Assembly (NCBI GenBank): GCA_964597045.1
Contig: CAZQWE010000002.1
Location: 181,175-245,174 of the forward strand
Direction of reading: 5' to 3'
DNA length: 64,000 nucleotides
DNA from: an uncultured Alphaproteobacteria bacterium
GTDB lineage: Bacteria > Pseudomonadota > Alphaproteobacteria > UBA9655
Positions within the stretch are counted from its first letter, which is position 1; each line of letters opens with the position of its first letter. The notes under the pieces are model-generated. The model made no database searches, was not told the DNA's origin, and saw nothing but the letters and a program-made list of their open reading frames with translations. Below are positions 3,779 through 34,696 of this stretch, piece by piece. Made by a program: the position numbers and the translations under genes.

Positions 3779-3812
3779 GTTTAACCTCTCCCACAAGTGG
3801 AGAGGTGAATCC

Positions 3813-4562
3813 TTACCTCGTGCTCTCATTCACAATTTCCCAGAACTCATCCAGGTTGAGGCTCGCGCCTCCCACAAGGAGGCCATCTCCATGGGGGATA
3901 TCAAGGAAGGGCTGTGCATTCTTCGCGTTAATGGATCCCCCGTAAAGAGTTGGAACGAGAGCGCCACCTGTCATCTTTATATTCAATTCATGTTTGATAA
4001 ACCCAAGAACTTCTTCAACTTCTCCAGGTTTTGGAAGTTTACCCGTTCCTATCGCCCACAAGGGCTCATAAGCAATAATGATCTCATGAGGTTGATAGAT
4101 GTGTGGCAAATCTGATTCGATTTGCTGACCAATCACTTCGAGTGTTTTTCCATGATTACGCTCATCCTCCTTCTCGCCTACACAAATAATCGGTCGAATC
4201 CCTGCCTTAACTGCAGCCTCAACTTTTTGATGAATCAGAGCACTGGATTCCTTATGGTGATTTCGCCTTTCACTATGGCCCACAATGACATATTTACACC
4301 CCACATCTTTAAGCTGGGCGATACTGACATCCCCCGTATAAGATCCCTTTTCATCGGGGTGGGCGTCTTGGGCTCCCACCTCAATGGGTGAGTTTTTCAA
4401 TAAATCTACAACCGTTGTGAGGTAAGGATAAGACGGACATAAAATCACATGAGGTAAGGGGCGATCAGCTTTCTGAATGAGTTTTAGAAAACCAGATGCA
4501 AACTTCTGAGCATCTTCTTTCGTCCCATTCATTTTCCAATTTCCAATGATATATTGTTGCAT
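3813..4562 (-). CDS. tpiA: triosephosphate isomerase
   Basis: Motifs IIGNWKMNG, VIVGHSERR and AYEPLWAIGTG. I prefer the ATG at 4562 (MQQYIIGNWKMNG), which has GGAG 7-10 nt upstream, over the ORF-track start at 4607. Confidence 0.95.
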   Translation of the reverse strand: MQQYIIGNWKMNGTKEDAQKFASGFLKLIQKADRPLPHVILCPSYPYLTTVVDLLKNSPIEVGAQDAHPDEKGSYTGDVSIAQLKDVGCKYVIVGHSERRNHHKESSALIHQKVEAAVKAGIRPIICVGEKEDERNHGKTLEVIGQQIESDLPHIYQPHEIIIAYEPLWAIGTGKLPKPGEVEEVLGFIKHELNIKMTGGALVPTLYGGSINAKNAQPFLDIPHGDGLLVGGASLNLDEFWEIVNESTR

Positions 4563-4702
4563 CAATTCACTCCTCTGATATGTGTATCTTTTTTGCCAAT
4601 ATGACACAGGTCAGTCATTTTTGAAGTATATAATACAAAACATATACACATTTGTCAGATATTTCTGTATGATCCAATGAAAATAATAATGGTTAAGGCA
4701 GG

Positions 4703-5713
4703 ATGGCAGAACCAAATATCGAGGATATCCAAGGGCAAGTCAAAGCCGCACAAGAAAGTGCTATGGCTATAGCTCAGCAATTTCAACCTCCTCCTGTACC
4801 GCAAATTCCCTTGCCTCAAGCACCAGTCAGCATGGGTGGTGTATCCATTACAATGGGTAAAGTCTCTCTTCTCGCAACTGCGCTCAGCTTAATGATGCTT
4901 GGCGCACTAACTTTCGTAGGTGGCTTTTTATTTGGAATTTGGTTCGCAGGGCCTACACCTGCCTACACAGCTTATAATTTTCCAACCGTGCCGCAGATGG
5001 TTGTTGCTCCGACGCAACCGCAAACCGTGCAACAAGCCCCTGTTCAAGGTCAACCCGTCGCTCAAACGGTTAGAAGCGGAGCTGATGCAATTGGGTTCGG
5101 GCAAATTGCCTCAAGTCAAGCAAGAAATATAACTCAATCAACTATCACGGGCGTAACTGTTCCAGGAGTTCCTAGCTTTTTAACACCTCTTGTGACATCA
5201 ACTCAATATGCAATTGGCCAGCAACTTGGATACAAAGCACAACAGCAGGTTGGTCAAACTATGAGTCAGCCAGCTGCACCTGTAGCTCAACAACCTCAAG
5301 CTCAACCCCAGATGCAAATGCAACCTCAGCCACAACAGCAGCCCCAATATCAACCTCAACCAACGGCTCAACCGCAAATGCAAGCGCCTGCACAGCCTCA
5401 AGGAATGCCTCTTCCCCAAGCTCCCGCTCCCGTACCAGGAGCCAAAGCAGGTCAGGATGAATTTACAATCCAAGTTGGGGTATTTGCTACCTCTGAAAAT
5501 GCTCAATCATTAGTGGATCAATTAAAAGGTATGAACCATCCCTCACTAATTGTAGAAGGGAAGTCACAAGAGGGAACGCCACTCTATTATGTTCAAAGTG
5601 GCATGTATAAAGATTACACGACCGCAACTCAAGCAGCATCTCAATTTGCATCTCAAAACATGCCAGGTGCTCTTATTGTTAAGGTTTCCCAAAGTCAAAA
5701 GGGTGCTTCATGA
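4703..5713 (+). CDS. SPOR-domain (peptidoglycan-binding) membrane protein with a Gln/Pro-rich linker
   Basis: One TM segment (LLATALSLMMLGALTFVGGFLFGIWF). Long Q/P low-complexity tract. C-terminal FTIQVGVFATSENAQSLVDQLKG...YYVQSGMYKDYTTA is typical of SPOR domains. The stop overlaps the next start (ATGA at 5710-5713). Confidence 0.8.
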   Translation: MAEPNIEDIQGQVKAAQESAMAIAQQFQPPPVPQIPLPQAPVSMGGVSITMGKVSLLATALSLMMLGALTFVGGFLFGIWFAGPTPAYTAYNFPTVPQMVVAPTQPQTVQQAPVQGQPVAQTVRSGADAIGFGQIASSQARNITQSTITGVTVPGVPSFLTPLVTSTQYAIGQQLGYKAQQQVGQTMSQPAAPVAQQPQAQPQMQMQPQPQQQPQYQPQPTAQPQMQAPAQPQGMPLPQAPAPVPGAKAGQDEFTIQVGVFATSENAQSLVDQLKGMNHPSLIVEGKSQEGTPLYYVQSGMYKDYTTATQAASQFASQNMPGALIVKVSQSQKGAS

Positions 5714-6453
5714 AGCTATACAAACAATTCATTGGGATAAACAAAAAGTTACTTCAACCTGTTCTTGCCTCCCTCATTCTTGTTGCATGTTCAGGAGAGC
5801 CAAGACCTGATCTCTCCATAGACTCAGTCTCTATTTATGCTGATCCAGACGCTAATCAGAATTCGGCGATCGCAGTTGATCTTGTTCTTGTTTATGACTT
5901 AGAGCTTGTAAATACCCTCGCTAAGTTATCAGCATCAAAGTACTTTTCAATGTCTAAGCAGTTATTACTTGATAATCCAACAATGCTTGATATTTGGCAT
6001 TGGGAACTCGTCCCTGGTCAAATCGTGGATAATTTCACACCTGACCAAGAGGATGGCGATGCTTTTGCTGCCTTCGTTTTTGCTAATTATATAACGGACG
6101 GAGACCATAGAGTTAAGGTGGCACCTGATGGGGTCATCAAAATTATTCTCATGAAAGATGATCTTAAAAATTATGCTGTCTTTAATGCAACAGATCCTAA
6201 GGTTGGGAAAACTGTTACGGATAAGCCAAACCCATGGGTAGCCGGAGAGGGAGAAGACTCATTTGCAAAAATGAAAAAAGGACCCGTTACAGCCCCGAGC
6301 AAACCCTGCAAGAAAGCGGTTCAACCTCCCGTATGTTGTCCGCCCCCTCAACCCGTATGTTGTCCACCTCCGGTACAGCCTTGTCCAATTTCAAAACAAT
6401 CATTAGCACCCTTACCCCTATTAAAACCATGTCCCAAGAAGAAATTAAGGTGA
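5710..6453 (+). CDS. tssJ: TssJ-like type VI secretion outer-membrane lipoprotein with a Cys/Pro-rich C-terminal tail
   Basis: Lipobox LILVAC after a basic N-terminus. Core resembles TssJ/SciN (PDANQNSAIAVDLVLVYDL...F...WELVPGQ). It sits directly upstream of tssK-L-M. Tail: PPVCCPPPQPVCCPPPVQPCP. Confidence 0.55.
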   Translation: MKLYKQFIGINKKLLQPVLASLILVACSGEPRPDLSIDSVSIYADPDANQNSAIAVDLVLVYDLELVNTLAKLSASKYFSMSKQLLLDNPTMLDIWHWELVPGQIVDNFTPDQEDGDAFAAFVFANYITDGDHRVKVAPDGVIKIILMKDDLKNYAVFNATDPKVGKTVTDKPNPWVAGEGEDSFAKMKKGPVTAPSKPCKKAVQPPVCCPPPQPVCCPPPVQPCPISKQSLAPLPLLKPCPKKKLR

Positions 6454-6457
6454 TCAG

Positions 6458-7810
6458 ATGGCTCAAATAAATACTTATCCAATTCAATGGCATGAAGGCA
6501 TGTTAATGATGCCCCAACATTTCCAAGAATCTGATACCCGTCTCGAGAATCTTGTCACATACTTTGTTTCACATGCTGTCCCCTTCTTTTGGGGAACTAT
6601 TAATATTAAAGTGGATGATGCCTTGTTAACTTCTGGAGTATTCAGACCACTTGAACTTGAAGCTATTATGCCGGACGGCTTACTTATATCAGGCCTTCCT
6701 GAATCTGAAACACCTCTTCAAATTGATTTGGAGCCATTTAGAGATAAACTTCAATCAACGCCTCTTTATATTTATCTTTGCGTTCCTCAGCAAAGAGGTG
6801 CTGATTTAGATATCGTAGGGGATTTGCCAAGGTACCAATCAACTCTTTCTAAAAATGTCGTTGATATGAATACAGGAGACCGCGCTATAGATATTCCACG
6901 CCTTTCTCCCAATCTTTCTCTACAAGTTTCAGATACTCCACCCGCTCATTATGTATGTCTACCACTGGCACAAGTGACTTGTAATGCCAAGAGCTACTCA
7001 CAGACAAATTATATTCCGCCACAATTACAAGTTCCTACAACCTCATCCCTTGGAGATTTGTGCAACCAGCTCACCTTCCGTCTGAGACAGAAGCTTGCCT
7101 ATTTGCAGCAGAAAGTTCAATCCGTCGAGAAGAGAGCAACGCGGGATCCTTTTTTTGAAGAAATCGAAGAGATAAGATTAAAGTTAATCGCCGGTCTTAT
7201 CCCCTTCGAAACAGTTCTTTCTATTGGCAAAGCCCATCCGTTTAGCATTTACCTTGAACTTTGCAGCCTGGCGGGGCTCATTTCCGGCGTAAAGTATGGG
7301 GAAATTCCCCCTCCCTTTGATGCCTACGATCATGATGATTTGAATCAAACCTTTAAGCAAGTCATAGTCTATATAGATAAAGTTTTATCTGAGATTGAAG
7401 AGAGTTACACAGTCATTCCTTTCATACTCACTGAACGTGTCTTTACGTTGCAACTTCAATCTTCCTGGGTTAGTGATCGATTGGTGCTGGGAGCAAGGGC
7501 ACAACCGAGCATGTCTGAAAGTGATCTCCTTGCTTGGATCAAGAACTGCGTCATTGTAACAAGTGAGTTTATTGGTCTCGCAAAGGATAACAGAGTTCTC
7601 GGAGTCCCGCGAAAAATCGTTTCAGAAATTCCAGAAATGAATTTAGTTCCCTCACGGGGAGTTCAATTGTTTGTCATTGATGTGAATCCACAATACATAG
7701 ATCCCAAAGGGGTTCTCTGCTTATTTAACGTATCAGACAATGAGCTGAATCGCCCAACTGAAATTGTGCTTTATAATTCAAATAAAGCCAGTTCAAGAAA
7801 GGGGAGTTAA
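6458..7810 (+). CDS. tssK: type VI secretion baseplate protein TssK
   Basis: N-terminal IQWHEGMLMMPQHFQ is the hallmark TssK/VasE start. Size is 450 aa. Gene context tssJ-K-L-M. Confidence 0.85.
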   Translation: MAQINTYPIQWHEGMLMMPQHFQESDTRLENLVTYFVSHAVPFFWGTINIKVDDALLTSGVFRPLELEAIMPDGLLISGLPESETPLQIDLEPFRDKLQSTPLYIYLCVPQQRGADLDIVGDLPRYQSTLSKNVVDMNTGDRAIDIPRLSPNLSLQVSDTPPAHYVCLPLAQVTCNAKSYSQTNYIPPQLQVPTTSSLGDLCNQLTFRLRQKLAYLQQKVQSVEKRATRDPFFEEIEEIRLKLIAGLIPFETVLSIGKAHPFSIYLELCSLAGLISGVKYGEIPPPFDAYDHDDLNQTFKQVIVYIDKVLSEIEESYTVIPFILTERVFTLQLQSSWVSDRLVLGARAQPSMSESDLLAWIKNCVIVTSEFIGLAKDNRVLGVPRKIVSEIPEMNLVPSRGVQLFVIDVNPQYIDPKGVLCLFNVSDNELNRPTEIVLYNSNKASSRKGS

Positions 7811-7881
7811 CCATTTATTAACTAAATTACGTATAAAATTTTAGAGATTTGTATACAATAAAATAATAATGAAAAACTGTT

Positions 7882-8700
7882 TTGCATGACAGTTTAGAAC
7901 TAAAAAAGGAAAGAGAATCGGTGGCCCGATTTAACAGAGATAACGAGCGTACTACTTTTATTGTGGAATGCTTTGAAGAATTTTACAGGGAAGTACTTAA
8001 GTACAAACAACTTGTGTATTCAAGAGCTTGGGAAAAAGCGAGTGAGGACTCGAGTTCATCACCAGAAGCCATTGCTGAATATATCATTTCAAATTTACAA
8101 AACTATTTAGAGCAACAAGCTAAAACTGTCTCTTATGGTGGTGATAGCTTTGCTGAAAACTATTATGATGAAGCCCAATTCATTATGGTTGCCCTTGCTG
8201 ATGAGGTTTTTCTCTCAATTGATTGGCCAGGCCGCAAATATTGGGAAACCAACTTGCTTGAACAGCGTTTATATAATTCTCATAGCGCAGGACAAACATT
8301 TTTCGACGCGCTTGATGAACTCTTAGAAGCCCAAAACCCCATCAGGATTGATATTGCGAGCTTATACTTGAGTGCCTTAGGTTTAGATTTCCAAGGAAAA
8401 TATCGTCATTTTAGTGATGAGGGTGCTTTGGAGTCCTATCGTAAAAGATTATTCTCCTTTATTAATCGGAGAGAACCCTATTTATTTAAAGTAAAAACCA
8501 CCCTATTTCCTGAAGCCTATTCTCATACGCTCGAAGGAAGTGGAACTAAAGAATTACCCAATTTACGTAATTGGTACTATGTATTTGCTGGTTTAGCTCT
8601 CACCTACTTACTTATTTCATATATAATTTGGTATAGTGCAACATGGGATATTTCGAGGATATTAAACCGAATCATTAGCTATAACACAGGTGGCATCTAG
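7882..8700 (+). CDS. tssL: type VI secretion membrane protein TssL (DotU family)
   Basis: DotU-like core (IMVALADEVFL...W...LLEQRLY...GQTFFDALDELL...SLYLSALGLDFQGKY) followed by a single C-terminal TM (YVFAGLALTYLLISYIIWY). The start is non-ATG (TTG at 7882, or GTG at 7921). Confidence 0.8.
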   Translation: MHDSLELKKERESVARFNRDNERTTFIVECFEEFYREVLKYKQLVYSRAWEKASEDSSSSPEAIAEYIISNLQNYLEQQAKTVSYGGDSFAENYYDEAQFIMVALADEVFLSIDWPGRKYWETNLLEQRLYNSHSAGQTFFDALDELLEAQNPIRIDIASLYLSALGLDFQGKYRHFSDEGALESYRKRLFSFINRREPYLFKVKTTLFPEAYSHTLEGSGTKELPNLRNWYYVFAGLALTYLLISYIIWYSATWDISRILNRIISYNTGGI

Positions 8701-8708
8701 AGGAAATC

Positions 8709-11700
8709 ATGATAAGCGATAATTTAACACGACTTACTTATTTATTTCCTTGGAGTATCATATTCGCGCTTCTGCTTGCCGCGTTATTTGCCTTTATTGG
8801 CATACTTATTTTTAGGCGTTCTATAAAAAAAGCAGAAGAGGGTCCCAAACCTGTAACCCCAAACCCCTTCTTTGAAAAATCAAAAATATTATTAGCCCGA
8901 TATGGTTATGCTGCAACTGATCAATTATCGATATCTTTTACGAAAGCTCTAAAGCTTTTACATAATTATATTGGTGGTTCTGAGTTCCGTTACCAACTCC
9001 CTTGGGTGGTGATGTTAGGTGCGAGCAGTTCTGGCAAAAGTACCCTTTTAGATAATCTTGAAGTTGATCGTCCTATTGGACGCCCTCTTTTTACAGCTGA
9101 AGGTGAAGATAAGCCCCTTTGTGATTGGGCATTTTTTGATCATGGAGTTGTTCTTGATGTCAATGGCAAGCTCGTTATTGATGCCAATCAAGCAAGATCC
9201 GACGAGGCTCTCTGGGATTTATTTCTTAATCTTCTTACAAGTCATCGACCGAAACGACCTGTTGACGGTGTTGTTATTAACATCCCTGTAACAGAGTTAA
9301 TTGGTAAAGAAGCCTTATCCCATGAAGACATCTTGATTCGTGCTGATTATATTTATGAAAAACTTTGGCAAATGCAAAAAACAACAGGTTTAAGAATTCC
9401 TGTTTACTTTGTAATTACAAAATCTGACCTCATCCCAGGTTTTGAGAGTTTTTGTAAGTCCATCCCAAACAATAATAAAACGAATATTTTTGGTTGGTCT
9501 AATGATAAATCAATTGATACTGTCTATGTGACGGATTGGGTTGATGAAGCCTTTTTTACGATCAATGAAGCGCTTTATGTGGCTCAGGAAGAGATTTATG
9601 CAGAGAGTAAAAACATTGATGGACGGGATGGAGTCTTCTTATTTCCCATGGCCTTAAATAAGGTCAGAAGTGGTATAAAGACATATGCAAATCACATCTT
9701 TAAACCTTCTGGATATCATGAGTCCTTTTTCTTCAGAGGCATCTACTTTGTTGGAGATAGCCATATAGAAAGATCAAGAGCGAAATCTCAAGGGATTTCG
9801 CGGTTAGCCGTATCAAAGGAAACTCGGTCCGATTCTAAAAGTAAGAACATCTATTTTATAAGAGATTTATTTGAAAAGAAAATTTTCAGAGAAATAGGTT
9901 TAGCAAGACCCGTATCAAGAGTTCTTTTAGGCAATACTAATTCTCTAAGACTGTTGAAAATTGGAGTCGTTATTGTTTCCATTTTGGGAACTCTTGAGTT
10001 ATTAATTTCCAACTCAAAATTAAATACAGCCAAAGTCAATCTAACACCCGTTCTTAAACAAGTTGAACTCTCCCTTGAGAAGATTCGCGGGCAGAGCGAC
10101 TCGGCAAGTAACAATCGAACATTTTTTTATGATCAGGCTCAAATGCTTTTGAATACAATGGCGCAAGTAAGAGCAAACTCTCTGTCCGCACCCTTTATTC
10201 CTGCTTCTTGGTTTTCGAATATAAATAGCAAAATAAGCTTCGTCATGGGACTTGCCTATGACCAAGTTATACTTAAATCCATGTCAAGCCAATTAGCCTA
10301 TAAAGCGCAGCAACTCGTCGATATCAACACGGTCCTTCCCGTAGCACAGCAGCCTGGGAATGGCATTGACCCTCTTCAAACTACAGAATTTTACCAACTG
10401 CAAAAGTATGTGCTTTCTATGAGAGAACTCGAACTTGCAACCAATAAATTCAATGAATTAGGGCTTGCTTCCAATTTGAAAGATGTCGCTGATATCATTA
10501 AATATCTTTTTGAATTTGACATGCCAGCTGAATTCCTTACCCATGATCTCTATTTTAAGGATGCTCTCGCTAAATCCCATAATAAGCTCTTTGATCTTGA
10601 GTCCTATAGAGAGGATGCATCAATTAAGCTGAATAAGTTATTTGATCAATTTGAAAATGCTGTTTTTGACCCTGTAAGGATGATTCCAGGCCTTGGATTC
10701 CTCATGACAAGTATTAATGCTATTTCAGGCTCCAATTACGGCACAGGAGGAGAAAGTCAAGCAGCTAATGATGTTGACAGCCTCCATCAAGTTTATCAAA
10801 GCCTTCAAGACACAAATAATTCTATAGCTAACCCAGGATTTAGTTGGTTAAACTATGATTATTTTAGTCCGGGCCCCCAATATGAATACGTTATGGGACA
10901 AATTTTTGAGTCAACAGTTTTTTCCGTATCAACATCAGCAGAACTTAAAACTGAAATTGATCAAAATTTTATCGGTTTCAGAAAGAAACTTGCTGAATAC
11001 AAATCGAGCCTCATTGATGGTGGGAATCTGTTTGATGTAGAAAATGGATTAGCCTTAGCTAGACCCTCACTCGGTTCACTTCGTTTACAACAAAACTTAG
11101 CCCTCTTCTTCTCCGAACCATTTATGGCTCGCGCTGAAGATCGCACAATTGTTGTCTCCATCCCCTTAGGATCTACACTCCTTTGGGATACCCTTCGACT
11201 ACAACAAAGTGTTTCTTTAATTAGTTCTTATAACGATTTTATTAATTCACGACTTTTAGGGCTTCCTAAGAATCTTCAACCCATGCTTCAAAAAGTAGCC
11301 CGAGAGAGTCTCGCTAGAAATCTCGTACAACAGATTGCCAACGCTCAAGTTTTAAGCACGGTGAACTTTAGAGAAAATAGCTTTGCACCTGAAGATGCTT
11401 TACTTACGCAAATTCAAAACTACCGTTCATCTGCACCCTTCCTTCAGCAAATTTTATTCTCATTAAATGCGAATAACATTAACGCAGCCTTTAGTACATT
11501 GAAGCAACTTCTTACTAATGAAAACTATAGTCTTTTAACGAAGCTTGATGGTATTTTAAGTGAAGAAGGACCGTATGCCATTAAAATGGATTCTTTCGAG
11601 TGGTGGAAGGGCAATAATATGGCAGCTCTTGAAGCGTATGGAGCAAATACTCTAGCTGAACTAAAGAATTATCTTGATCTTCAAAGAGATCGTATTGCCT

Positions 11701-12905
11701 ATCTTGCCCAAGAGTTTGCAGAACCGGTTGTTTCCTTCTTGGAACTCATTAACTCAGAGGGTATGCATGCTGATCTTCCTCTCATGAACAAATGGGCGGG
11801 TATCATCAATGAGCTGAATGGCTATAAACGCAAAGCGCCAGGAAATGGTCTCACTGAACTTGAATCATATATTTTGAAACCTCTTAATGAAGTAACACTT
11901 GACACCTGTGATAAGTATACCAAGCTGTATAACAATTACACATTAAAAGGCGATTATTTCGTTAATGTGCTTGTTGACTTGGAAGATAAACTCCATAAGC
12001 AGTGTGCAAACCTTTCAGGGTTTGTTTCAGTCGATAACTATACTCAACTGGCTAATTTCTTTAATGCAAACTTAGCAGGGCGTTTCCCCTTTACAGAGGA
12101 AGTCAAAGGGCAAGCAGATGCTTCTCCTGAGGACATAAGAACATTCTTCCAAATGATGGATTCTCAAGCCGCTGGAATAAAAGCCACCTTAAAGCAAGCC
12201 AAAGATTTAGGACCAGCCGGTAAAAAGGCTTTTGTCTTTATTGAGCAAATGGAAGGTGTCCGGAAATTCTTTGGTGGATTCTTGGTTCCAGATTCCTTGT
12301 TACCTTACCCTTCTTACACCTTTGATGTGGCTTTTAGGGTCAATAAACAAAGAGAAGTCAGAGGAAACGAAGTTCTTGATTGGCAAGTTACATCCGGTGG
12401 AACTACTTTTAATATGCGTTCGCCTTCTCATAAATGTGGATGGAAGGTTGGTAACCCTGTTAAAGTAACTTTTAGATGGGCGGCTAACAGTCCACTCCAA
12501 CCCCTTGTTACTGAAGGTTCCTCAGGATTATCTGTTGATGGTGAATATGCTAGCTATTCGTATGGTGGAACATGGGGACTTATTCGTCTCTTAAGAGAGC
12601 ATCAAGCTAAGACTTGTGATTTTGATAACTTAAATGATGATCAGCCAACGACTCTTCGTTTCAATATCCCTTTAACAAATGTAATGTCTGGTACTGGTCT
12701 GTCAAATACAGACCCACTAAAAGCTACAGTCTTTCTCAGATTTGTAACATCACCCGTGCCTAATCCAAAACCAAAGAAGGGTGAAGCTCCTAAAGAGGAA
12801 GAAGAATCCAAAGAAGGTGATCAAACAAAAATCAAAGTCGGCGAACCTGTTGCCCTACCCTTCTTCCCGTTCAATGCCCCTAATATCAAAGGAGCGGCGA
12901 TGTAA
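8709..12905 (+). CDS. tssM: type VI secretion membrane protein TssM (IcmF family), 1398 aa
   Basis: Walker A GASSSGKST (nt 9018-9044). IcmF motif PVYFVITKSDLIPGFESF. N-terminal TM plus a second TM near residue 415. Long periplasmic region. Charged K/E/P tail at the C-terminus. Confidence 0.9.
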   Translation: MISDNLTRLTYLFPWSIIFALLLAALFAFIGILIFRRSIKKAEEGPKPVTPNPFFEKSKILLARYGYAATDQLSISFTKALKLLHNYIGGSEFRYQLPWVVMLGASSSGKSTLLDNLEVDRPIGRPLFTAEGEDKPLCDWAFFDHGVVLDVNGKLVIDANQARSDEALWDLFLNLLTSHRPKRPVDGVVINIPVTELIGKEALSHEDILIRADYIYEKLWQMQKTTGLRIPVYFVITKSDLIPGFESFCKSIPNNNKTNIFGWSNDKSIDTVYVTDWVDEAFFTINEALYVAQEEIYAESKNIDGRDGVFLFPMALNKVRSGIKTYANHIFKPSGYHESFFFRGIYFVGDSHIERSRAKSQGISRLAVSKETRSDSKSKNIYFIRDLFEKKIFREIGLARPVSRVLLGNTNSLRLLKIGVVIVSILGTLELLISNSKLNTAKVNLTPVLKQVELSLEKIRGQSDSASNNRTFFYDQAQMLLNTMAQVRANSLSAPFIPASWFSNINSKISFVMGLAYDQVILKSMSSQLAYKAQQLVDINTVLPVAQQPGNGIDPLQTTEFYQLQKYVLSMRELELATNKFNELGLASNLKDVADIIKYLFEFDMPAEFLTHDLYFKDALAKSHNKLFDLESYREDASIKLNKLFDQFENAVFDPVRMIPGLGFLMTSINAISGSNYGTGGESQAANDVDSLHQVYQSLQDTNNSIANPGFSWLNYDYFSPGPQYEYVMGQIFESTVFSVSTSAELKTEIDQNFIGFRKKLAEYKSSLIDGGNLFDVENGLALARPSLGSLRLQQNLALFFSEPFMARAEDRTIVVSIPLGSTLLWDTLRLQQSVSLISSYNDFINSRLLGLPKNLQPMLQKVARESLARNLVQQIANAQVLSTVNFRENSFAPEDALLTQIQNYRSSAPFLQQILFSLNANNINAAFSTLKQLLTNENYSLLTKLDGILSEEGPYAIKMDSFEWWKGNNMAALEAYGANTLAELKNYLDLQRDRIAYLAQEFAEPVVSFLELINSEGMHADLPLMNKWAGIINELNGYKRKAPGNGLTELESYILKPLNEVTLDTCDKYTKLYNNYTLKGDYFVNVLVDLEDKLHKQCANLSGFVSVDNYTQLANFFNANLAGRFPFTEEVKGQADASPEDIRTFFQMMDSQAAGIKATLKQAKDLGPAGKKAFVFIEQMEGVRKFFGGFLVPDSLLPYPSYTFDVAFRVNKQREVRGNEVLDWQVTSGGTTFNMRSPSHKCGWKVGNPVKVTFRWAANSPLQPLVTEGSSGLSVDGEYASYSYGGTWGLIRLLREHQAKTCDFDNLNDDQPTTLRFNIPLTNVMSGTGLSNTDPLKATVFLRFVTSPVPNPKPKKGEAPKEEEESKEGDQTKIKVGEPVALPFFPFNAPNIKGAAM

Positions 12906-13957
12906 TGGCCTTTAATAACAACCTCTCCCTCTTCTTTGAATCCATATCAGATAACCCACCTTGTGGACCATCGCTCAGGTATTCAGAAACTTATGATAAA
13001 ATTAAAAATGCAAGACATGAGGAAGATGATCGGCTCGCTCAAGGTATCTGGAAAAGTGAAGTTAAAAAGGCCGATTGGGATATGGTGGACAGACTCTGTC
13101 GGGATACTCTTCAAACGAAATCAAAGGATTTGCAAATTGCCGCATGGCTAACTGAAGCCTGGCTCCACCTTGAAGGAATGGGAGGATTAACCCAAGGGTT
13201 AGAGCTCATTCTTGAGCTCACTAAAACCTATTGGGATAATATTCACCCTCAGATTGATCAAGGCAGCTTCGATTTGAGAATTGTCCCTTATGAATGGATC
13301 AACACGAGACTTAGTGAAGAAATTCAGTTTGTAAAGATTACCATGCCAGCAGCTCGAACAACCCTTCCCTATCATTTAGTCGACTATAATGACGCCAATC
13401 GACATGTTATTTCCGGAAAAAAAGATGGTGAACTTCCGACAGGTAAACCTTCGCTTTCTAAAATAACAACAAGCATTGAACAAACTCCAGCTGCTTTCTA
13501 TCAATCAATAGATGAGAATTGTAAGAAGGCCTTAGCTTTGATAGAGAACATTGAAGAACTCCTTCATGAAAAACTGGTCGGAGATACCCCTAGTTTTTAC
13601 CGAATAAAAGAAAAGATAAGCATCGTTCAACGCTTTGCCCAGCACATTCTTGCTGAAAGAGGTGAAAAAATGGCAGCCCTACACCCCACTCCAGAAGCGC
13701 CCACTAAAGAACCAACTTCCAAAAAGAAAACCCCTGGCCCAATTGACAGTCGTGACCAAGCTTATGCCATGCTTGGTGAAATTGCCTCTTATCTTGAAAA
13801 GATTGAACCCCATAGTCCAACCCCCTATTTGATTCGTCGCTCCATTACATGGGGTAGCATGACTCTCAGTGAAGTCTTTGCTGATGCCACAGCGAATGGG
13901 AAGGACCTATCGCTTATACTTGATATTCTGGATGTAAAGAAAGAAAATCAGCACTAA
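12905..13957 (+). CDS. tssA: type VI secretion protein TssA (ImpA N-terminal domain family)
   Basis: ImpA_N signature PCGPSLRYSETYDKIKNARHEEDD...ADWDMV...SKDLQIAAWLTEAW...GGL..GLELI. C-terminal EPHSPTPYLIRRSITWG motif. One-nt overlap with the tssM stop. Confidence 0.8.
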   Translation: MAFNNNLSLFFESISDNPPCGPSLRYSETYDKIKNARHEEDDRLAQGIWKSEVKKADWDMVDRLCRDTLQTKSKDLQIAAWLTEAWLHLEGMGGLTQGLELILELTKTYWDNIHPQIDQGSFDLRIVPYEWINTRLSEEIQFVKITMPAARTTLPYHLVDYNDANRHVISGKKDGELPTGKPSLSKITTSIEQTPAAFYQSIDENCKKALALIENIEELLHEKLVGDTPSFYRIKEKISIVQRFAQHILAERGEKMAALHPTPEAPTKEPTSKKKTPGPIDSRDQAYAMLGEIASYLEKIEPHSPTPYLIRRSITWGSMTLSEVFADATANGKDLSLILDILDVKKENQH

Positions 13958-14045
13958 GCCTTAAGAATCGTCATTGTGAAGATTGCACTTGTTTTTTAAT
14001 TATTAGTATTTATATTTATAAATATTAATTTTTTTGGTGCGCATT

Positions 14046-16796
14046 ATGAAATATATTTACCCTTTGCTCTTCTCAACAATATTGTTTTTACGCCATGATG
14101 CTTTAGCTATGAACGATAACAATAATAATACTAAATATTCTGATGAAGATCCAATTCATCAACAAAGGAGAAAAGCAAGTGAAGACTTTTCAAAAGAAGT
14201 ACAAGAAAAATCTGATGTTCTTTTAAAAGCTGCCGATTCATTATTGAAGGATTCAGAGGACAATAAGCTTAAAGCTGCTATTGAAAAATGTAAAAAAGAG
14301 ATTTGCAGCTATCGTGAGAGTACTGTCAAGTCAACAATAGCTACTCGAGATAATAAACCTGTACTCCCCTTCTACGATCCCCATTTTGTAGATTTTGTTT
14401 CCTTCCATTTTTATCGTCAAGAAATCATAAATTTAGCTACAAGGTATAATAAAGGTTCTACGGAATATATTTTTTTTTATAAAACTTTTAATTATTTTAA
14501 TTTAATCGCGCAACATTTATCCGATCTACAAAAATTTTATTTACTAAATATTACACCTACAAAAAATAGTGCCCCATCTGATCCTTCAGCAAGAACTCCT
14601 ATGCATATAAATTCAAAGCATCTTTGGGAGAGAATTATAAAACTGAAGACCTTCTCATTGTCTTGTATTGAAGCAACTAACGTAGATAAACTTGATATAC
14701 CTTTAAATATGAAGGTTTATTTTAATGTCTGTTTTAAGGAAATGAAAGAAGAGTTAAATAATATTTGTTCTGATTGTCCCCTACAAATCGATGATATCAT
14801 CAATTCCAATAATGAAGAAAATCTTCAAACCTTTGATTCTTTGGTTTTTGAAAATTTTGATATAGTCAATAGTATGACTTCTTTTCTTTGTGGACATACT
14901 GGAATAGAACTTCTAAGTGCAACTAAACAACTTAGGTGGGTTTATCCTCTCAATTTTGATTTCTATAATGATGATAAAAAAGTTAAAGGTAGGGATAAAC
15001 TTACTAAGGATCAAATTGCCCCTAACATACCTATATTTGATGAAATGTGGAAAGATATTGTATGGAAATCTGATGATAAATCAAATACTGGCATTTCTTG
15101 GTTAAATCATTTAGAAGAAATTGATAATCCACAAGCGAATTTGCATGAAATAAAAACTTACGGTCAAGAATTTTTTACGGAATTCGAAGCAAGTTACCAA
15201 GATGTATGGAAAGCTCGTAAGGCTGTTGAAAAATCGCCCTTAAATGAAAAAGATAAAGCGATCGCCCTTAATATTCTGAAACAATCATTTGACTCTATGT
15301 CGAAGCACGGGGGGGCCATCAAGAGAGATGTTAATCAAGGGATCATAACAACTAGAGATGATGTTAATAGAATTACTTTTATCCCATATTGTAAACAGTA
15401 TCATCTTAGAAAGGCCTTGCACGAATTGCTTGCAAATAAAGAATATGAAACCATTCATGATGCAGTGAATAAGGCCCTCGATGCAATGGGTGTATTTGAA
15501 AGACACTTTTTACATCAAAACAATTTTCTTATTGATAACTTAGAGATTAAAGAGGGAGCTAAAATAGATGGGATTCAACGATATTGTATCACTTTCAATC
15601 CACGCAAAGCTCTCGTTAATTTAAAAATAAGAGCTCGGCAGTTAGAACTTATTGCCAGTTCTATTAATTTAGAACGCTTAAAGTTACCAGATGATTATAA
15701 GGCTCAAATTGCTGGCAAACAAAAGCTCCTAAGACAAGAACTTAAAAACCTTTTAAAAAATAATGAAATCAATAAAGTGATGAAGGCCCCACTATGGAAA
15801 ACACTTGATGTGGATTTATCCGGAGATTTAAAAGGTGTTACATTTGGAATACCTGATATGTTGATTACAAATGAAGAGCTTATAAGAAATGCATCTATTG
15901 CCTTTTTAAACCCCCTCATGATCACATTTGTTATGAATAACAATCAAATAATTTCGTTAACAAAGGATCAAATTGAAGAAAACCTTCCCTTATGGGATTC
16001 AATGTGTCTTAATTTCCAAGATAAGAAAACCGCTGTTACGGGAAACCAAAAACCTTCAGCAAATAAAGGAAAAAGTAAAAAGAAAGGAAGAAAGAAACAA
16101 GTAGTAATAGAAAAAAAGAAAAATAATATAGTTGTTCCTATTACAACTATTGTTCAACAAGATGAAAAACCTATTGTTGAGCAACCTAGCTTCGAACCAG
16201 TTACTGCCCCTAATGAACAAAACCTAGAAAAATGTGATAACCCCGCCCCATATAATGCAAAGAAGCAACGAGAAGAGCTTATTCTCTGGCTTAGAGATAT
16301 TTTAAATACTTCTAAGGAAAAGAAGGAGCTCTTTATCGTTTACGACCGTGCTCACTGCTTAGTCCGCCAATTGGACCATCATCCTGAGCTTTTTGATACG
16401 GAAGAATCCTTAAGCCCTCTTCAAGATATTGCGCAAAGACTTTGTGATCAAATATCTCATATTCAAAACAAATCTAAAGTCATAAAGAAGGAAAGAATCG
16501 CTGTGCCCTTTAGAGCTCTTCCCCTTTACTTGTCTTTTATGGAGTCCAGTGTATCCGACCTTGTTGGAATTCGATTTGGCCGTGTGAGAACGCTCTTTGA
16601 AAGTCTTGGCATTAAGATTGATACATCTCGTGCGGGTTCAAGAGTGCATTTTGAGTACGGAAACCATGCCACCTCAATCCATATCCATGATAAGCATGAT
16701 GAGCCGTTAGAAGGCGGCAGAATCTCCTCCCTTCGTAAATTCCTTTGGGAAATTGGATTTACGACTGATGATGGAGATGAAGAGGAATCAAATTGA
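14046..16796 (+). CDS. secreted orphan protein, paralog A: signal peptide, divergent helical body, Lys-rich linker, conserved C-terminal HicA-like module
   Basis: Signal peptide MKYIYPLLFSTILFLRHDALA (the ATG at 14046 is preferred over the TTG at 14034). Full-length collinear similarity to the next gene. The last 105 aa are identical to paralog B. Confidence 0.7.
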   Translation: MKYIYPLLFSTILFLRHDALAMNDNNNNTKYSDEDPIHQQRRKASEDFSKEVQEKSDVLLKAADSLLKDSEDNKLKAAIEKCKKEICSYRESTVKSTIATRDNKPVLPFYDPHFVDFVSFHFYRQEIINLATRYNKGSTEYIFFYKTFNYFNLIAQHLSDLQKFYLLNITPTKNSAPSDPSARTPMHINSKHLWERIIKLKTFSLSCIEATNVDKLDIPLNMKVYFNVCFKEMKEELNNICSDCPLQIDDIINSNNEENLQTFDSLVFENFDIVNSMTSFLCGHTGIELLSATKQLRWVYPLNFDFYNDDKKVKGRDKLTKDQIAPNIPIFDEMWKDIVWKSDDKSNTGISWLNHLEEIDNPQANLHEIKTYGQEFFTEFEASYQDVWKARKAVEKSPLNEKDKAIALNILKQSFDSMSKHGGAIKRDVNQGIITTRDDVNRITFIPYCKQYHLRKALHELLANKEYETIHDAVNKALDAMGVFERHFLHQNNFLIDNLEIKEGAKIDGIQRYCITFNPRKALVNLKIRARQLELIASSINLERLKLPDDYKAQIAGKQKLLRQELKNLLKNNEINKVMKAPLWKTLDVDLSGDLKGVTFGIPDMLITNEELIRNASIAFLNPLMITFVMNNNQIISLTKDQIEENLPLWDSMCLNFQDKKTAVTGNQKPSANKGKSKKKGRKKQVVIEKKKNNIVVPITTIVQQDEKPIVEQPSFEPVTAPNEQNLEKCDNPAPYNAKKQREELILWLRDILNTSKEKKELFIVYDRAHCLVRQLDHHPELFDTEESLSPLQDIAQRLCDQISHIQNKSKVIKKERIAVPFRALPLYLSFMESSVSDLVGIRFGRVRTLFESLGIKIDTSRAGSRVHFEYGNHATSIHIHDKHDEPLEGGRISSLRKFLWEIGFTTDDGDEEESN
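16470..16783 (+). repeat. near-identical 3' tract of paralog A (copy 1 of 2)
   Basis: 16470-16657 is identical to 19231-19418 (188 nt, offset 2761). The next ~125 nt carry 8 substitutions, all synonymous. Confidence 0.9.
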
Positions 16797-16875
16797 AATA
16801 CAGAGGCAATCTCTCCCTTGATTTTTTCATCTAAATATTTATGTATAATAATATAATTATTTTTTGGTGAGCATT

Positions 16876-19557
16876 ATGAAATATATTTATCCTTTCCTTT
16901 TATCAACATTTTTAATTTATTCAAACGATGCCTTCGCAATGAAGGGGAGAAACCCTGTAGAAACTTCGGATCAGAAAAAAGCTAAGAACCAGAATAGATT
17001 AGATGTGTTTCTTCAAGAACTTGAAGAAGGATGTCCTAAATTATTAAAAGAAGCTGAAGCTCTCATTCCCATACTAGGTGAAAGAGAAAGAGAGAGTATC
17101 GAATCTTCAAAAGGGGCAATACAGAAATTCTATGAAAAAACCAAAGATGCTATTCACGCTTGTCGAACTGCTCCTTCTGCTGCTCAGGATCCCTGTTTCG
17201 TATCCTATTTGACTTACTTTCCACTTAGAGAAACCTTAGTTGTTGCAATAAACAAGAACACTCATACAGAAGTACGACAATATTTTTCTAATATGTTTAA
17301 TTATATCAATCAATATGAAGAACATTTAAGCCCTCAGGAGATGTTCTATTTTCTTACACACGTATGTGAAGGCGAGTCCATTCAATGGGATCCAAACTTT
17401 GCTTGGTCGAAAATACTTCAATTAAAAAGATTTTCACTAGCTTGTCTTGAAGCAACTAAATTGGATGATTTAGATATCTCTCGTACTTTCAAACAAGGCT
17501 TTGGCCTCTTTTTTGATAAATTTAAGAAACAATTGAACACCATTCCAGATGACCTCTTAAGTCAGTGTGCAGCAAGAAACCTGAATCCGAGTAATGATAT
17601 CTTAAAATCGATCCAATTGATCAATTCTTTCTTAACGACAGTTTGTGGAATTAGTGCGACTTCTTTACTTCTTACACAAAAACAACCCGAAATATGTTTC
17701 CCTGTAAATCAAATCTTCAATATCGATGGTAAGATGTACCAACTCCCACAAGATGAGATTGCCAGAAATATGACCCGTGCCAAAAACATGTGGAAACATG
17801 TCGTTTGGACTATTGAACCTCTTGAGCAATTTCAATTGTACTTGCAAAATCCATTGAGACAAGAAAAGCCTAAATCTGCTGTTATGCTGAAAAAGTTAAC
17901 TTTAGGTGAAGTATACAAAGCCGAACTCAAGAAGAGCCATGATGATTTATGGCATACTGAAAGAGCCGTGCAGAAAATGGAACTCCCAGTAAAATACAAA
18001 GAAAACGTAAACGCTTTGTTTAGTAAATGCTTTGCATCTATGCGCTATGCCGTCAATGGAATTTACAAAGCTACAACTCATAGTTCTACAAATTTGGAAA
18101 TTGATAGCAGTACTCTGATCCCATATTGCGTCCAATTCCCTCTACGTAAGGGACTGCATGAAGTGCTTGCAACTGAAGACTTATCAGAAATACATGAACA
18201 TGCTCAAAAGGCGTTAGATGCTCTGGGTATTTTTGAGAGGTATTCTTCAAACGAGACTGAGTTCCTTATCAAGAATTTAGACATCCAGCTCACATCGAAT
18301 AAAAATCCATTTGTGCCTGTATATGAAATTCGTTTTAATGCACGTAAAGCCATCGTAAATTTGAGAGCCAAAGCAAGGAACCTATACCTCATAGCTGACC
18401 ATATAAGACTTGATAAACTTCATTTGCCCAAAGAATACGAGTCACGTCTTGCAACTAAGCTTAAGGAAATGAAAGACAAAGTTTTAAAGATAAGTTTCAT
18501 GAAATTCGGAGCCAAGTTCTGGCAAGATCCAGCCTGGAAAACAACTTCTCTTGATCTAGCGTCGGAAAAAACTACAGAGTTTTTGAGAATCCAACCAAAA
18601 CTCCAAGAAATCGTTGGCATTATTAGTGAAGCTACTCCGAATATTTTAAATCCTCTTTTTGTTCCTATCTTTAAGGATGACTATGGCACCTTACTCTTAA
18701 CTCTTGCTGAAGCAACCGAAAGACTCCCCTTATGGGATCAGATGTGTATGTCCATGCCAGTAAATAAACCTGCTTTTAAAGAACCGGTCCAAAAGAAAGA
18801 AGTGAAAAAGAAGAAGAAACAACAACCTGTTAGAACACCACAGCACAAACCTAAGGAAACCAAAAAGGGTTCTTTACTCACACAAGAAACTCCAACGGTA
18901 TTAGAGACTGAACCTGCGCTTCAACCTTCTAAATTAGCAGCGGTTGAACCAGCATCAATCTCTTCAGCTGTACAGCCAAAAACAGAAGTATCAGTCGTGT
19001 CTGAGATTGAAACACCTCAAAAGCCGCGGGAAGAATTGATTGTATGGCTTCAGGATATTATGAAGCAATCAGCAGTCGATAAGGAGAAGTGTTTCCATAT
19101 CTTTGGAAGAGCTTATGCCCTCTCCCGACAATTGTCACAACATCCTGATCTGTTTGAAACGGAGGAATCCTTAAGACCTCTTCAAGATATAGCACAAGGC
19201 CTTTGTGATCAAATGTCTCACATTCAAAAAAAATCTAAAGTCATAAAGAAGGAAAGAATCGCTGTGCCCTTTAGAGCTCTTCCCCTTTACTTGTCTTTTA
19301 TGGAGTCCAGTGTATCCGACCTTGTTGGAATTCGATTTGGCCGTGTGAGAACGCTCTTTGAAAGTCTTGGCATTAAGATTGATACATCTCGTGCGGGTTC
19401 AAGAGTGCATTTTGAGTATGGAAACCATGCAACCTCAATCCATATCCATGATAAGCATGATGAGCCGTTAGAAGGTGGCAGAATCTCCTCACTTCGTAAG
19501 TTCCTATGGGAAATTGGGTTTACGACGGATGATGGAGATGAAGAAGATGATCAGTAA
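16876..19557 (+). CDS. secreted orphan protein, paralog B: signal peptide, divergent helical body, Lys-rich linker, conserved C-terminal HicA-like module
   Basis: Signal peptide MKYIYPFLLSTFLIYSNDAFA (ATG at 16876). The upstream 30 nt also resemble those of paralog A. The duplication period is 2830 nt at the start codons. Confidence 0.7.
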   Translation: MKYIYPFLLSTFLIYSNDAFAMKGRNPVETSDQKKAKNQNRLDVFLQELEEGCPKLLKEAEALIPILGERERESIESSKGAIQKFYEKTKDAIHACRTAPSAAQDPCFVSYLTYFPLRETLVVAINKNTHTEVRQYFSNMFNYINQYEEHLSPQEMFYFLTHVCEGESIQWDPNFAWSKILQLKRFSLACLEATKLDDLDISRTFKQGFGLFFDKFKKQLNTIPDDLLSQCAARNLNPSNDILKSIQLINSFLTTVCGISATSLLLTQKQPEICFPVNQIFNIDGKMYQLPQDEIARNMTRAKNMWKHVVWTIEPLEQFQLYLQNPLRQEKPKSAVMLKKLTLGEVYKAELKKSHDDLWHTERAVQKMELPVKYKENVNALFSKCFASMRYAVNGIYKATTHSSTNLEIDSSTLIPYCVQFPLRKGLHEVLATEDLSEIHEHAQKALDALGIFERYSSNETEFLIKNLDIQLTSNKNPFVPVYEIRFNARKAIVNLRAKARNLYLIADHIRLDKLHLPKEYESRLATKLKEMKDKVLKISFMKFGAKFWQDPAWKTTSLDLASEKTTEFLRIQPKLQEIVGIISEATPNILNPLFVPIFKDDYGTLLLTLAEATERLPLWDQMCMSMPVNKPAFKEPVQKKEVKKKKKQQPVRTPQHKPKETKKGSLLTQETPTVLETEPALQPSKLAAVEPASISSAVQPKTEVSVVSEIETPQKPREELIVWLQDIMKQSAVDKEKCFHIFGRAYALSRQLSQHPDLFETEESLRPLQDIAQGLCDQMSHIQKKSKVIKKERIAVPFRALPLYLSFMESSVSDLVGIRFGRVRTLFESLGIKIDTSRAGSRVHFEYGNHATSIHIHDKHDEPLEGGRISSLRKFLWEIGFTTDDGDEEDDQ
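19231..19544 (+). repeat. near-identical 3' tract of paralog B (copy 2 of 2)
   Basis: Same alignment as 16470-16783. Confidence 0.9.
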
Positions 19558-30500: not shown

Positions 30501-30580
30501 CTAAAACGCCAATAAGTTCTTTAGCTTCAGCTTATCGTTTTGCAAGACTGCTAAACTATATACCAGTCGATATGAGATAA
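27527..30580 (+). CDS. secreted Sel1-like repeat protein, 1017 aa
   Basis: Signal peptide (LLSVAVISLSAQSLQS). Many ~36-40 aa units of the type KG.(F/W/Y)G(F/Y)KK(D/N)..KA...L. Five nearly regular units fall in nt 29620-30190. Confidence 0.7.
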   Translation: MTYKIFRKSALLSVAVISLSAQSLQSNDDFLYDALPTVLKGRISRFLSQEDNQNLTLVYKQANSIVSVQEPWKQLKANNIQADPSVSITNAWLGKLRLLDYHIAKELATEAQTNLQTASNEFVTLSDMVRKEQKAQTQREEAIYKEDKVFETKDFERSPALVQLETDQFAYERKVTHLQSQLTQHTQAAAHFLELACDVGDGKAIEIKFGLLLAEDAQRARDFLDSMVARDYMGALRLKRNALRSGTQGYALNVEEAARINRLLIDKKSLEALWLSREYHLQGSEEWRAIVDESAKRGNKEARFEKLSCQLQGLNGYERNLEEAEKTLASLPSEASANLITLKSYTLMNNPKSEENDQAVCLINEWLVDKGSVDAKYLRIKGLLAGVWGYKKDLDKAKEEIDKFLPPNNDGYTLVYSLRNMEQNPVHGNNLPAESLRFCIDYLIEKGRQEGTYFKIKGLIEGIESGLGFEKNLNLAREMLSELRPGTEWIPSTILQEWRMNQHLVNLQEGIEFLEECLNQDQFKHLQRWNNKFQRHLLGEEGQEINYDNAREILAKYPRESEGEVYALRRQWLSDEQTPEKTKAVEFLGEWLLERNHSGMIYDLLSDNLKGSNGYEINHAKAKTILKSVGGKIHWLLADLKSSLESMEQTPDIITSKEVLEEWLEEYGEDGIAAFKKAKKLAKQDPKAGRKFINKLYKRKFIEGSVLKMKGLSKGKFGFKKDVRAARNILNELMNENEAIGLRYKVKALDKGKVGYKTNPKKARKLIEKEIEKNKPQTCFYNENVAHLKLTGVEKGIYGFKKNPKKARKLFEQFLQEGRLIPNIDEAYALAKGKWGFKRDREQALQIIDKAIEVGNPLAYLAKIEVLQKGKYGFKKNPKAASKLEQEFKKRFQQTSASTPVDMQVDMLPQDDQSVRFLASIRTGEMTQAIEILSEGNNKVGSVPHLIEGFNELGNELHADKLRSLIANRILTLKPNPEVIERNFNHLSSGQAKTPISSLASAYRFARLLNYIPVDMR

Positions 30581-34693: not shown

Positions 34694-34696
34694 CTC

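Follow-up and report, generated by a model that had tools for sequence, protein, structure and literature searches.

Tandem, apparently exported proteins with a HicA-superfamily domain at the C-terminus in an uncultured alphaproteobacterium

Two tandem genes that share a C-terminal module

Within a 64,000-nucleotide stretch of a contig from an uncultured Alphaproteobacteria bacterium (CAZQWE010000002.1; referred to here as the window), two tandem paralogous genes on the forward strand (14034–16796 and 16864–19557; Table 1), separated by 67 bp, encode large proteins that end in the same small module. An original prediction, made from the DNA alone, had compared this module with the mRNA interferase HicA, and we examined the two genes, their relatives and their surroundings with that comparison in mind. 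The proteins encoded by paralogue 1 and paralogue 2 are 39% identical overall; the last ~100 residues ahead of a short acidic tail are identical in the two. In paralogue 1, positions 16470–16796 correspond to the last 108 residues and the stop codon of the 920-residue open reading frame (ORF). The peptide ranges originally proposed (16572–16760 and 19333–19521) proved to be in frame on the forward strand in both genes and read RFG plus the quoted 60 residues, so that the quoted peptide proper begins at 16581 in the first copy and at 19342 in the second.

At the DNA level, the two genes share an identical tract of 188 nt that covers the beginning of the HicA-like domain together with the preceding helix. 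Upstream of the tract the identity between paralogues decays rapidly. In the 43 codons that follow it there are nine differences, all nine of them synonymous and none non-synonymous, and non-synonymous differences reappear only in the acidic tail. To judge from this pattern, the tract is likely to reflect recent gene conversion; the exclusively synonymous differences in the 43 codons show the second half of the module to be under purifying selection and not merely recently copied. The 5′ ends of the genes (14030–14113 and 16860–16943) also form a direct repeat, 77% identical, which includes the start context TTTTTTGGTG.GCATTATG and the signal-peptide codons. Because this repeat covers the start context, the duplication took in the translation-start region.

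Identity of the C-terminal module

Sequence profiles and a structure model indicate, with high confidence, that the module is a HicA-superfamily domain by homology. In a search of the 38,880 PHROGs families, the window module matches phrog_8887 (annotated ‘toxin’; E = 2.9 × 10−8, module residues 7–72), as do 24 of the 25 family modules, and no other PHROGs family recurs. The identity of phrog_8887 emerged from a tblastn comparison in which a family member weakly matches the annotated ‘HicA protein’ of Burkholderia phage ST79. This protein (gp016, AGK86775.1; 84 amino acids) matches phrog_8887 with E = 1.9 × 10−33 and passes the Pfam HicA_toxin model (36.6 bits compared with a cut-off of 27), and directly downstream of its gene, with overlapping stop and start codons, lies a HicB gene (PF05534, 62 bits). 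Alignment of the module profile to ST79 HicA with hhalign gave a probability of 94.9% (E = 4.2 × 10−8, 65 columns, ~31% identity), and alignment to eight diverse ST79-type HicAs from IMG/VR gave 94.2% (E = 1.1 × 10−7). The motifs L..LGG and GSR[IV].F and the closing helix R..F....G align in register; adding 20 residues upstream of the module failed to bring the N-terminal extension of ST79-type HicA into the alignment. By these sequence comparisons, the resemblance to HicA lies well beyond chance.

The connection to canonical HicA is less direct. The Pfam HicA_toxin family (PF07927) is the sole recurrent family among the modules (11 of 25, best E = 6 × 10−4); the window module scores 16–17 bits (E = 0.006–0.011), and none of the 25 reaches the 27-bit gathering score. 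The Pfam relationship that the original prediction would imply is therefore below threshold when sought directly and significant when reached through phrog_8887 and ST79 HicA. None of the 25 modules was matched in NCBIfam. Five canonical HicA sequences, which we checked against the PDB, align with the ST79-type proteins over their full length, with GSR opposite GSH (E = 1.6 × 10−4). The module profile compared with the same five by hhalign gave no significant result, only a misregistered match of 15 columns, and the link to canonical HicA consequently runs through the ST79-type proteins.

The AlphaFold model of the module (pLDDT 83, pTM 0.68) has an alpha-beta-beta-beta-alpha order, with a helix at residues 11–20, strands at 24–26, 33–38 and 41–46, and a second helix at 57–69; the same elements recur in the model of the full-length protein. 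When the module model was compared with 350,542 PDB chains using Foldseek, the top four matches were HicA toxins (6g26_E, 6g26_F, 6hpb_A and 5yrz_B, from B. pseudomallei, E. coli and S. pneumoniae), with target-normalised TM-scores of 0.59–0.68, root-mean-square deviations of 2.4–2.9 Å and probabilities of 0.69–0.90. The predicted fold is the alpha-beta-beta-beta-alpha arrangement resembling the dsRBD (the domain that binds double-stranded RNA), and the HicA/YcfA-type fold originally proposed is borne out by phrog_8887, hhalign and the structural comparison. Neither the single module nor the family profile retrieved a HicA in sequence searches of the PDB, a search with the ST79-type HicA profile returned no solved structure, and predicted structures of viral proteins (BFVD), compared with the module by Foldseek, gave noise only.

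One element of the original description needs correction: the motif given as ‘GSH’ reads GSR. The Arg is invariant in the 25–29 family members aligned, and it stands at the position of a His that is required for HicA activity by mutagenesis (His24 in B. pseudomallei HicA, His28 in Y. pestis HicA3) and whose essential equivalent in other HicAs is His23 or His36 (PMC11594946). Across the alignment of 25 modules, S32 and R33 of the GSR motif, G58 and R64 are invariant and R10, L21, D26, G31, H46, H48, G53, I60 and L63 nearly so. Full-length alignments give G841, S842, R843, H856, G868 and R874 as invariant (numbering of the 893-residue protein); in the numbering of the 920-residue ORF, the family-invariant residues are G868-S869-R870, H883, G895 and R901, with H885 and D886 nearly invariant. 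The ST79-type HicAs, whose membership of the superfamily is accepted, share the GSR substitution, and GSR and HRPHPGKEAKRYQV are invariant among these free-standing 84-residue toxins (IMG/VR loci L016–L062). By sequence, then, the module belongs to the ST79, or GSR, subtype of HicA. The catalytic chemistry of this subtype is uncertain because the canonical His is Arg, and for the same reason RNase activity cannot be assumed.

Distribution and conservation of the family

An exhaustive phmmer search of 1.84 billion representative proteins with the module returned 27 real homologues; a further match (P0003) was discarded as a repetitive glycosyltransferase-like artefact. Most homologues are 535–706 amino acids in length and carry the module at the extreme C-terminus, and the short ones are fragments at contig ends. 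Wherever a source supplies a name it reads ‘hypothetical protein’, and the named sources are Alphaproteobacteria metagenome-assembled genomes (MAGs). A scan of GTDB with a sub-alignment identified 10 loci, all in Alphaproteobacteria MAGs and with three copies in one MAG, and a metagenome scan added only two further loci. With the full-length protein as query, GTDB yielded no match, IMG/VR contained no family member, and a word-indexed protein search returned nothing for the C-terminal 158 residues and only the protein itself for the full-length query. The family is restricted to uncultured Alphaproteobacteria.

Every homologue found carries the same C-terminal domain. Homology spans ~160 C-terminal residues in all members and extends further in some, and identity within the family is 38–59% for the module compared with 18–27% for the whole protein. 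On these alignments, no part of the protein is better conserved than the HicA domain, which is under purifying selection.

Architecture of the proteins

Both paralogues begin with an apparent signal peptide, continue with two helical modules, a disordered linker rich in Lys and a helical pre-domain, and finish with the C-terminal HicA-like domain and an acidic tail, such that ~800 residues are fused ahead of the HicA-like domain. The original claim that the domain ends a protein of ~900 residues with a signal peptide is therefore upheld for both the fusion and the apparent signal peptide. By eye and hydropathy, nearly all full-length members begin with the same pattern, namely MK... followed by a hydrophobic core of 12–13 residues and ALA, AFA or CFA, and these N-termini make it probable that the proteins are Sec-exported.

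In the model of full-length paralogue 2 (mean pLDDT 71; numbering of the 893-residue protein), the signal-peptide-like segment forms an N-terminal hydrophobic helix, followed by mostly helical modules at 31–305 and 343–625, disorder at 631–714, the helical pre-domain at 717–816 and the alpha-beta-beta-beta-alpha domain at 821–880. The helical module is duplicated in paralogue 1, where both copies end in TKDQI..N.P..D.M, and paralogue 2 has the same layout; relatives of 535–706 amino acids have a single module. No Pfam domain scores above threshold in either full-length protein, and Foldseek of the full-length model against the PDB returned generic helical noise only, with no known match for the N-terminal modules. 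These modules are novel. The helical pre-domain is conserved, specific to the family and matches no known family.

Just past the helical module, 23 of the 29 aligned members have a dense Lys/Arg cluster (7–13 of 20 residues). The cluster in paralogue 1, NKGKSKKKGRKKQVVIEKKK, could, speculatively, be a nuclear localisation signal. The tail that follows the HicA-like domain is acidic in the window proteins (TTDDGDEEESN, 16761–16793; TTDDGDEEDDQ, 19522–19554) and basic in many relatives (for example, ...KKFARRVGR, ...QKLIRRVR and ...SSKKRK). Such charged C-terminal tails are reminiscent of the secretion signals of some type IV systems.

Table 1 Coordinates of the features in the window
Feature	Position	Strand	Remarks
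Paralogue 1 ORF	14034..16796	+	920 aa from TTG 14034; likely start ATG 14046, giving 916 aa (P0002)
Paralogue 2 ORF	16864..19557	+	897 aa from TTG 16864; likely start ATG 16876, giving 893 aa (P0001)
HicA-superfamily domain, paralogue 1	16566..16760	+	65 residues; alpha-beta-beta-beta-alpha, from sequence profiles and model
HicA-superfamily domain, paralogue 2	19327..19521	+	protein sequence identical to the paralogue 1 domain
Identical DNA tract	16470..16657 (= 19231..19418)	+	188 nt; comparison of paralogues
Sec-type signal-peptide-like segment, paralogue 1	14046..14108	+	MKYIYPLLFSTILFLRHDALA; ALA at −3 to −1; putative, by eye and hydropathy
Sec-type signal-peptide-like segment, paralogue 2	16876..16938	+	MKYIYPFLLSTFLIYSNDAFA; AFA at −3 to −1; putative, by eye and hydropathy
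Helical module, first duplicated copy, paralogue 1	14637..15047	+	residues 202–338 of the 920-aa ORF; BLASTP between copies, E = 6 × 10−5
Helical module, second duplicated copy, paralogue 1	15621..16004	+	residues 530–657 of the 920-aa ORF; BLASTP between copies, E = 6 × 10−5
Lys/Arg cluster in disordered linker, paralogue 1	16062..16121	+	NKGKSKKKGRKKQVVIEKKK; resembles a nuclear localisation signal
Disordered linker, paralogue 2	18766..19017	+	opens with Lys-rich cluster KKEVKKKKKQQPVRTPQHKPKETKKG; pLDDT <50
Helical pre-domain, paralogue 1	16263..16562	+	~100 aa; WL..I....F.I..KA..L...L..P.LLEQ.Q ... VP..LE..F.YFM.TP
Helical pre-domain, paralogue 2	19024..19323	+	conserved
tssK	6458–7810	+	
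tssL/DotU	7882–8700	+	
tssM/IcmF	8709–12905	+	
tssA/ImpA	12905–13957	+	

No HicB or immunity gene

A hicAB module contains a small free-standing cytoplasmic toxin (~55–100 amino acids), whereas the HicA domain described here forms the C-terminal 65–75 residues of proteins of 535–920 amino acids. The original prediction was also right that no HicB-like gene is adjacent, as no ORF able to encode HicB flanks either gene, and tblastn with the ST79 HicB found nothing near the family genes in the window or at 16 related loci. For comparison, a HicB gene lies directly downstream of HicA at all 47 of the free-standing ST79-type loci in IMG/VR. One weak tblastn match to HicB, 3 kb from the family gene of locus L007, is spurious, the ORF being unlike HicB. 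We also considered the upstream region of the proteins as a fused HicB and rejected it, given that it is predicted to be all-helical and has no HicB match.

Downstream of paralogue 1, the only gene on the same strand is paralogue 2; a 75-bp gap then separates it from hscA, which is oppositely oriented. Neither the two copies nor any relative is followed by an immunity gene; what lies downstream is a paralogue or housekeeping genes, the latter mostly in the opposite orientation.

Genomic setting and source lineage

Upstream of paralogue 1, tssK, tssL, tssM and tssA form a compact block on the forward strand (6458–13957); no tssB, tssC, hcp or vgrG was found among the window ORFs scanned. Downstream of paralogue 2, an isc operon (hscA, hscB, iscA, iscU and iscS) occupies the opposite strand. 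[quoted passage not shown] Bodocaedibacter, has a GC content of 40.6% (PMC8163844). The window has a GC content of ~41%, and together the gene order and composition suggest a Paracaedibacter-like member of the Holosporales as its source.

At the 10 related loci, the family gene has only unrelated housekeeping genes around it and usually converges with the next gene downstream; no T6SS gene lies within 10 kb of it. As T6SS genes are absent from these loci, the adjacency in the window is probably incidental.

Proposed function and alternatives

We favour, with moderate confidence, an explanation in which the two proteins are exported RNA-targeting effectors that end in a HicA domain. The protein would cross the inner membrane through Sec while still unfolded. 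Because the chain would leave in that state, the cytoplasmic RNA of the producer would never be exposed to it and an antitoxin would be unnecessary. Outside the producer cytoplasm, the HicA domain would act as the effector end, binding and probably cleaving RNA; we regard an RNA-directed activity of the domain as about as likely as not. The helical modules and the basic linker would supply targeting, with the Lys-rich cluster possibly serving as a nuclear or nucleic-acid targeting element. A eukaryotic host cell would be the likeliest target, because the tssK-L-M-A block is typical of Paracaedibacter-like Holosporales that live inside protists; we put this forward tentatively, as possible rather than probable. 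The most specific version, in which lineage-specific Sec-exported effectors combine a captured, antitoxin-free GSR-type HicA with a linker resembling a nuclear localisation signal and helical targeting modules and act on the RNA of a protist host, possibly within the host manipulation or host addiction that has been proposed for Paracaedibacter-like symbionts, is improbable as a whole.

Several observations weigh against the idea of an exported RNA-targeting effector. The catalytic His of canonical HicA is replaced by an invariant Arg throughout the family, and we found no experimental work on the GSR-type subtype in the literature. The direct Pfam HicA_toxin match is below threshold, the comparison with canonical HicAs by hhalign fails, and the Foldseek E-values (0.3–0.5) are not significant on their own. 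The signal peptides were judged by eye and hydropathy alone and no outer-membrane route was identified, the nuclear-localisation reading of the Lys cluster is speculation, and only gene order and GC content place the source in the Holosporales.

The principal rival is that the domain has a non-catalytic role, in which the HicA-derived domain is a dsRBD-like module that binds RNA, another nucleic acid or protein on an exported or surface scaffold, with an adhesin-like or sequestering function. It arises because the canonical His is absent, with Arg in its place in every member, and draws further on the lack of an immunity or antitoxin gene near the family genes and on the HicA fold being the dsRBD fold, which often binds without catalysis (PMC9424270; PMC10865869). 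However, the free-standing ST79-type HicAs are also GSR proteins and yet retain HicB in 47 of 47 cases, which implies that the GSR subtype is still toxic. The polar residues S, R, H, H, D and R are moreover invariant or nearly so, a pattern typical of an active site over a simple binding surface, and we consider the non-catalytic role unlikely. Each of three other explanations is much less likely than either this rival or the effector. In one, a short alpha/beta motif resembles HicA by chance; the sub-threshold Pfam match, the Foldseek E-values and the PDB sequence-profile search that returned no HicA would fit this, but it is hardly credible given the match to phrog_8887 by 24 of 25 members with no other recurrent family, the hhalign result (E = 4 × 10−8), the shared motifs in register and the fact that the best four of 350,542 PDB chains are all HicA toxins.

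The other two explanations keep the HicA domain and change its use. That both proteins are cargo or accessories of the adjacent T6SS would account for their position, as tssA ends at 13957 and paralogue 1 starts at 14034–14046 on the same strand, but the proteins bear Sec-type signal-peptide-like N-termini, which are not normally present in T6SS substrates. The T6SS of Paracaedibacter-like symbionts has been suggested to act on the host (PMC8163844); the conserved tssK-L-M-A unit, however, stops at tssA (PMC8163844), none of the 10 related loci has T6SS genes nearby, and Pfam finds no PAAR, VgrG, Hcp, MIX, FIX or Rhs marker in the proteins, all of which makes this very unlikely. An antibacterial role, as polymorphic-toxin-like exotoxins directed at competing bacteria and akin to the toxins with C-terminal HicA domains (HicA-CT) of the S8 polymorphic toxin systems (S8-PTS) and Rhs systems, has in its favour that HicA at the C-terminus of large secreted toxins has precedent (PMC9424270) and that tandem paralogues are common in polymorphic toxin systems. 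Here, though, no immunity gene accompanies any member, Pfam finds no trafficking or pre-toxin domain (Rhs, PAAR, LXG, VENN, S8/BetaH and others), and the C-terminus is constant and the N-terminus variable, the reverse of polymorphic toxins; we find an antibacterial role most unlikely.

Comparison with known HicA systems

The closest sequence relatives of the module are the ST79-type HicAs (phrog_8887), with which it shares GSR, a turn rich in His following strand 3 and a closing helix that has a conserved Arg and ends in Gly. These relatives are free-standing cytoplasmic proteins of 84 amino acids with HicB, whereas the window domain ends an apparently exported protein of ~900 amino acids that has no HicB; and where the ST79 type has the invariant loop HRPHPGKEAKRYQV, the window family has H-x-H-D-x-x-N-G-x-L-D-G-G-R-I. 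Canonical HicAs (E. coli 6HPB, B. pseudomallei 6G26/4C26, S. pneumoniae 5YRZ and Y. pestis HicA3 4P78) have the predicted fold in common with the module, as well as the same motif order: a helix that finishes with L..G, Gly-Ser ahead of strand 2, a turn containing His after strand 3 and a C-terminal helix that ends in Gly and a hydrophobic residue. The module differs from them in having GSR rather than GSH, in being fused and apparently exported without HicB, and in that its sequence similarity to them is significant only through the ST79 type.

The original prediction had called a HicA-like domain in such a position an unusual deployment; it is unusual but has a precedent among secreted polymorphic toxins. 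HicA occurs as the C-terminal toxin of Gram-positive S8-PTS (BetaH) toxins and of one Rhs toxin; these HicA-CT domains are ~50% identical to toxin–antitoxin HicAs, keep the catalytic His and are accompanied by immunity genes, and they exemplify exchange between toxin–antitoxin and secreted-toxin systems (PMC9424270). Like them, the window family has a HicA domain at the C-terminus of a large, here apparently secreted, protein. In place of their S8 peptidase, BetaH or Rhs trafficking modules it has novel N-terminal modules, and it differs further in its GSR subtype, its lineage, the lack of an immunity gene and a HicA domain that is constant rather than variable. Gerdes (2024) distinguished 14 genetic contexts of HicA, none with a signal peptide; classes 11–13 are fusions of HicA to HicB, and class 14 is SMC-HicA, a cytoplasmic SMC ATPase with a proposed role in phage defence (PMC10865869). 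The fused forms (classes 11–14) resemble the window family in having a C-terminal HicA on a large, mostly helical protein in a single-gene arrangement, whereas the window proteins have no SMC, ATPase or HicB domain. The family would be a fifteenth context. Its homology and predicted fold make it a member of the HicA superfamily, and it falls outside the hicAB toxin–antitoxin, polymorphic toxin and T6SS effector classes as these are defined.

Almost all that is known of HicA concerns a small cytoplasmic toxin that HicB keeps in check, and the secreted HicA fusions previously described are all Gram-positive polymorphic toxins with immunity genes (PMC9424270). The unannotated family described here departs from these norms in its apparent signal peptide, its lack of an antitoxin or immunity gene and its HicA domain, which is conserved more strongly than the rest of the protein, and it occurs in uncultured Alphaproteobacteria that resemble intracellular protist symbionts. 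If the domain is active, the family would illustrate how the toxin of a toxin–antitoxin system can be turned into an effector merely by export, would supply a candidate RNase directed at the host in a group of symbionts of which hardly any effectors are known, and would be a natural test of RNase function in a GSR subtype that lacks the canonical His. If host RNA is the target, these would be the first HicA-derived effectors aimed at a eukaryote.

Other genes of the window

The rest of the window holds housekeeping genes, one autotransporter and several large ORFs without a Pfam match. The autotransporter (959 aa, 36715–39594, reverse strand) has a C-terminal Autotransporter beta-domain and a PATR repeat, so that, in addition to the T6SS, the genome encodes at least one type V secreted protein. 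Four large ORFs on the forward strand have no Pfam match, two of them at a threshold of 1e-3 (29–3778, 1,249 aa; 27527–30580, 1,017 aa) and two at 1e-5 (34697–36550, 617 aa; 56894–58948, 684 aa); these may be further lineage-specific proteins. A Sel1-repeat protein (524 aa) is encoded at 50008–51582 on the forward strand, and such repeats are common in host-associated bacteria.

Family genes may occupy a loosely conserved chromosomal neighbourhood. One MAG locus (L005) has an hscA homologue ~3 kb upstream of its family gene. In another (L011), ORFs of 403, 318 and 615 amino acids directly downstream of the family gene (2375–6409) resemble, by ORF size alone, a run at 32538–36550 on the forward strand of the window that consists of a 403-aa Aminotran_1_2 protein, a 314-aa ELM1-like protein and the 617-aa protein without a Pfam match; by eye, the 403-aa ORF of L011 resembles 5-aminolevulinate synthase.

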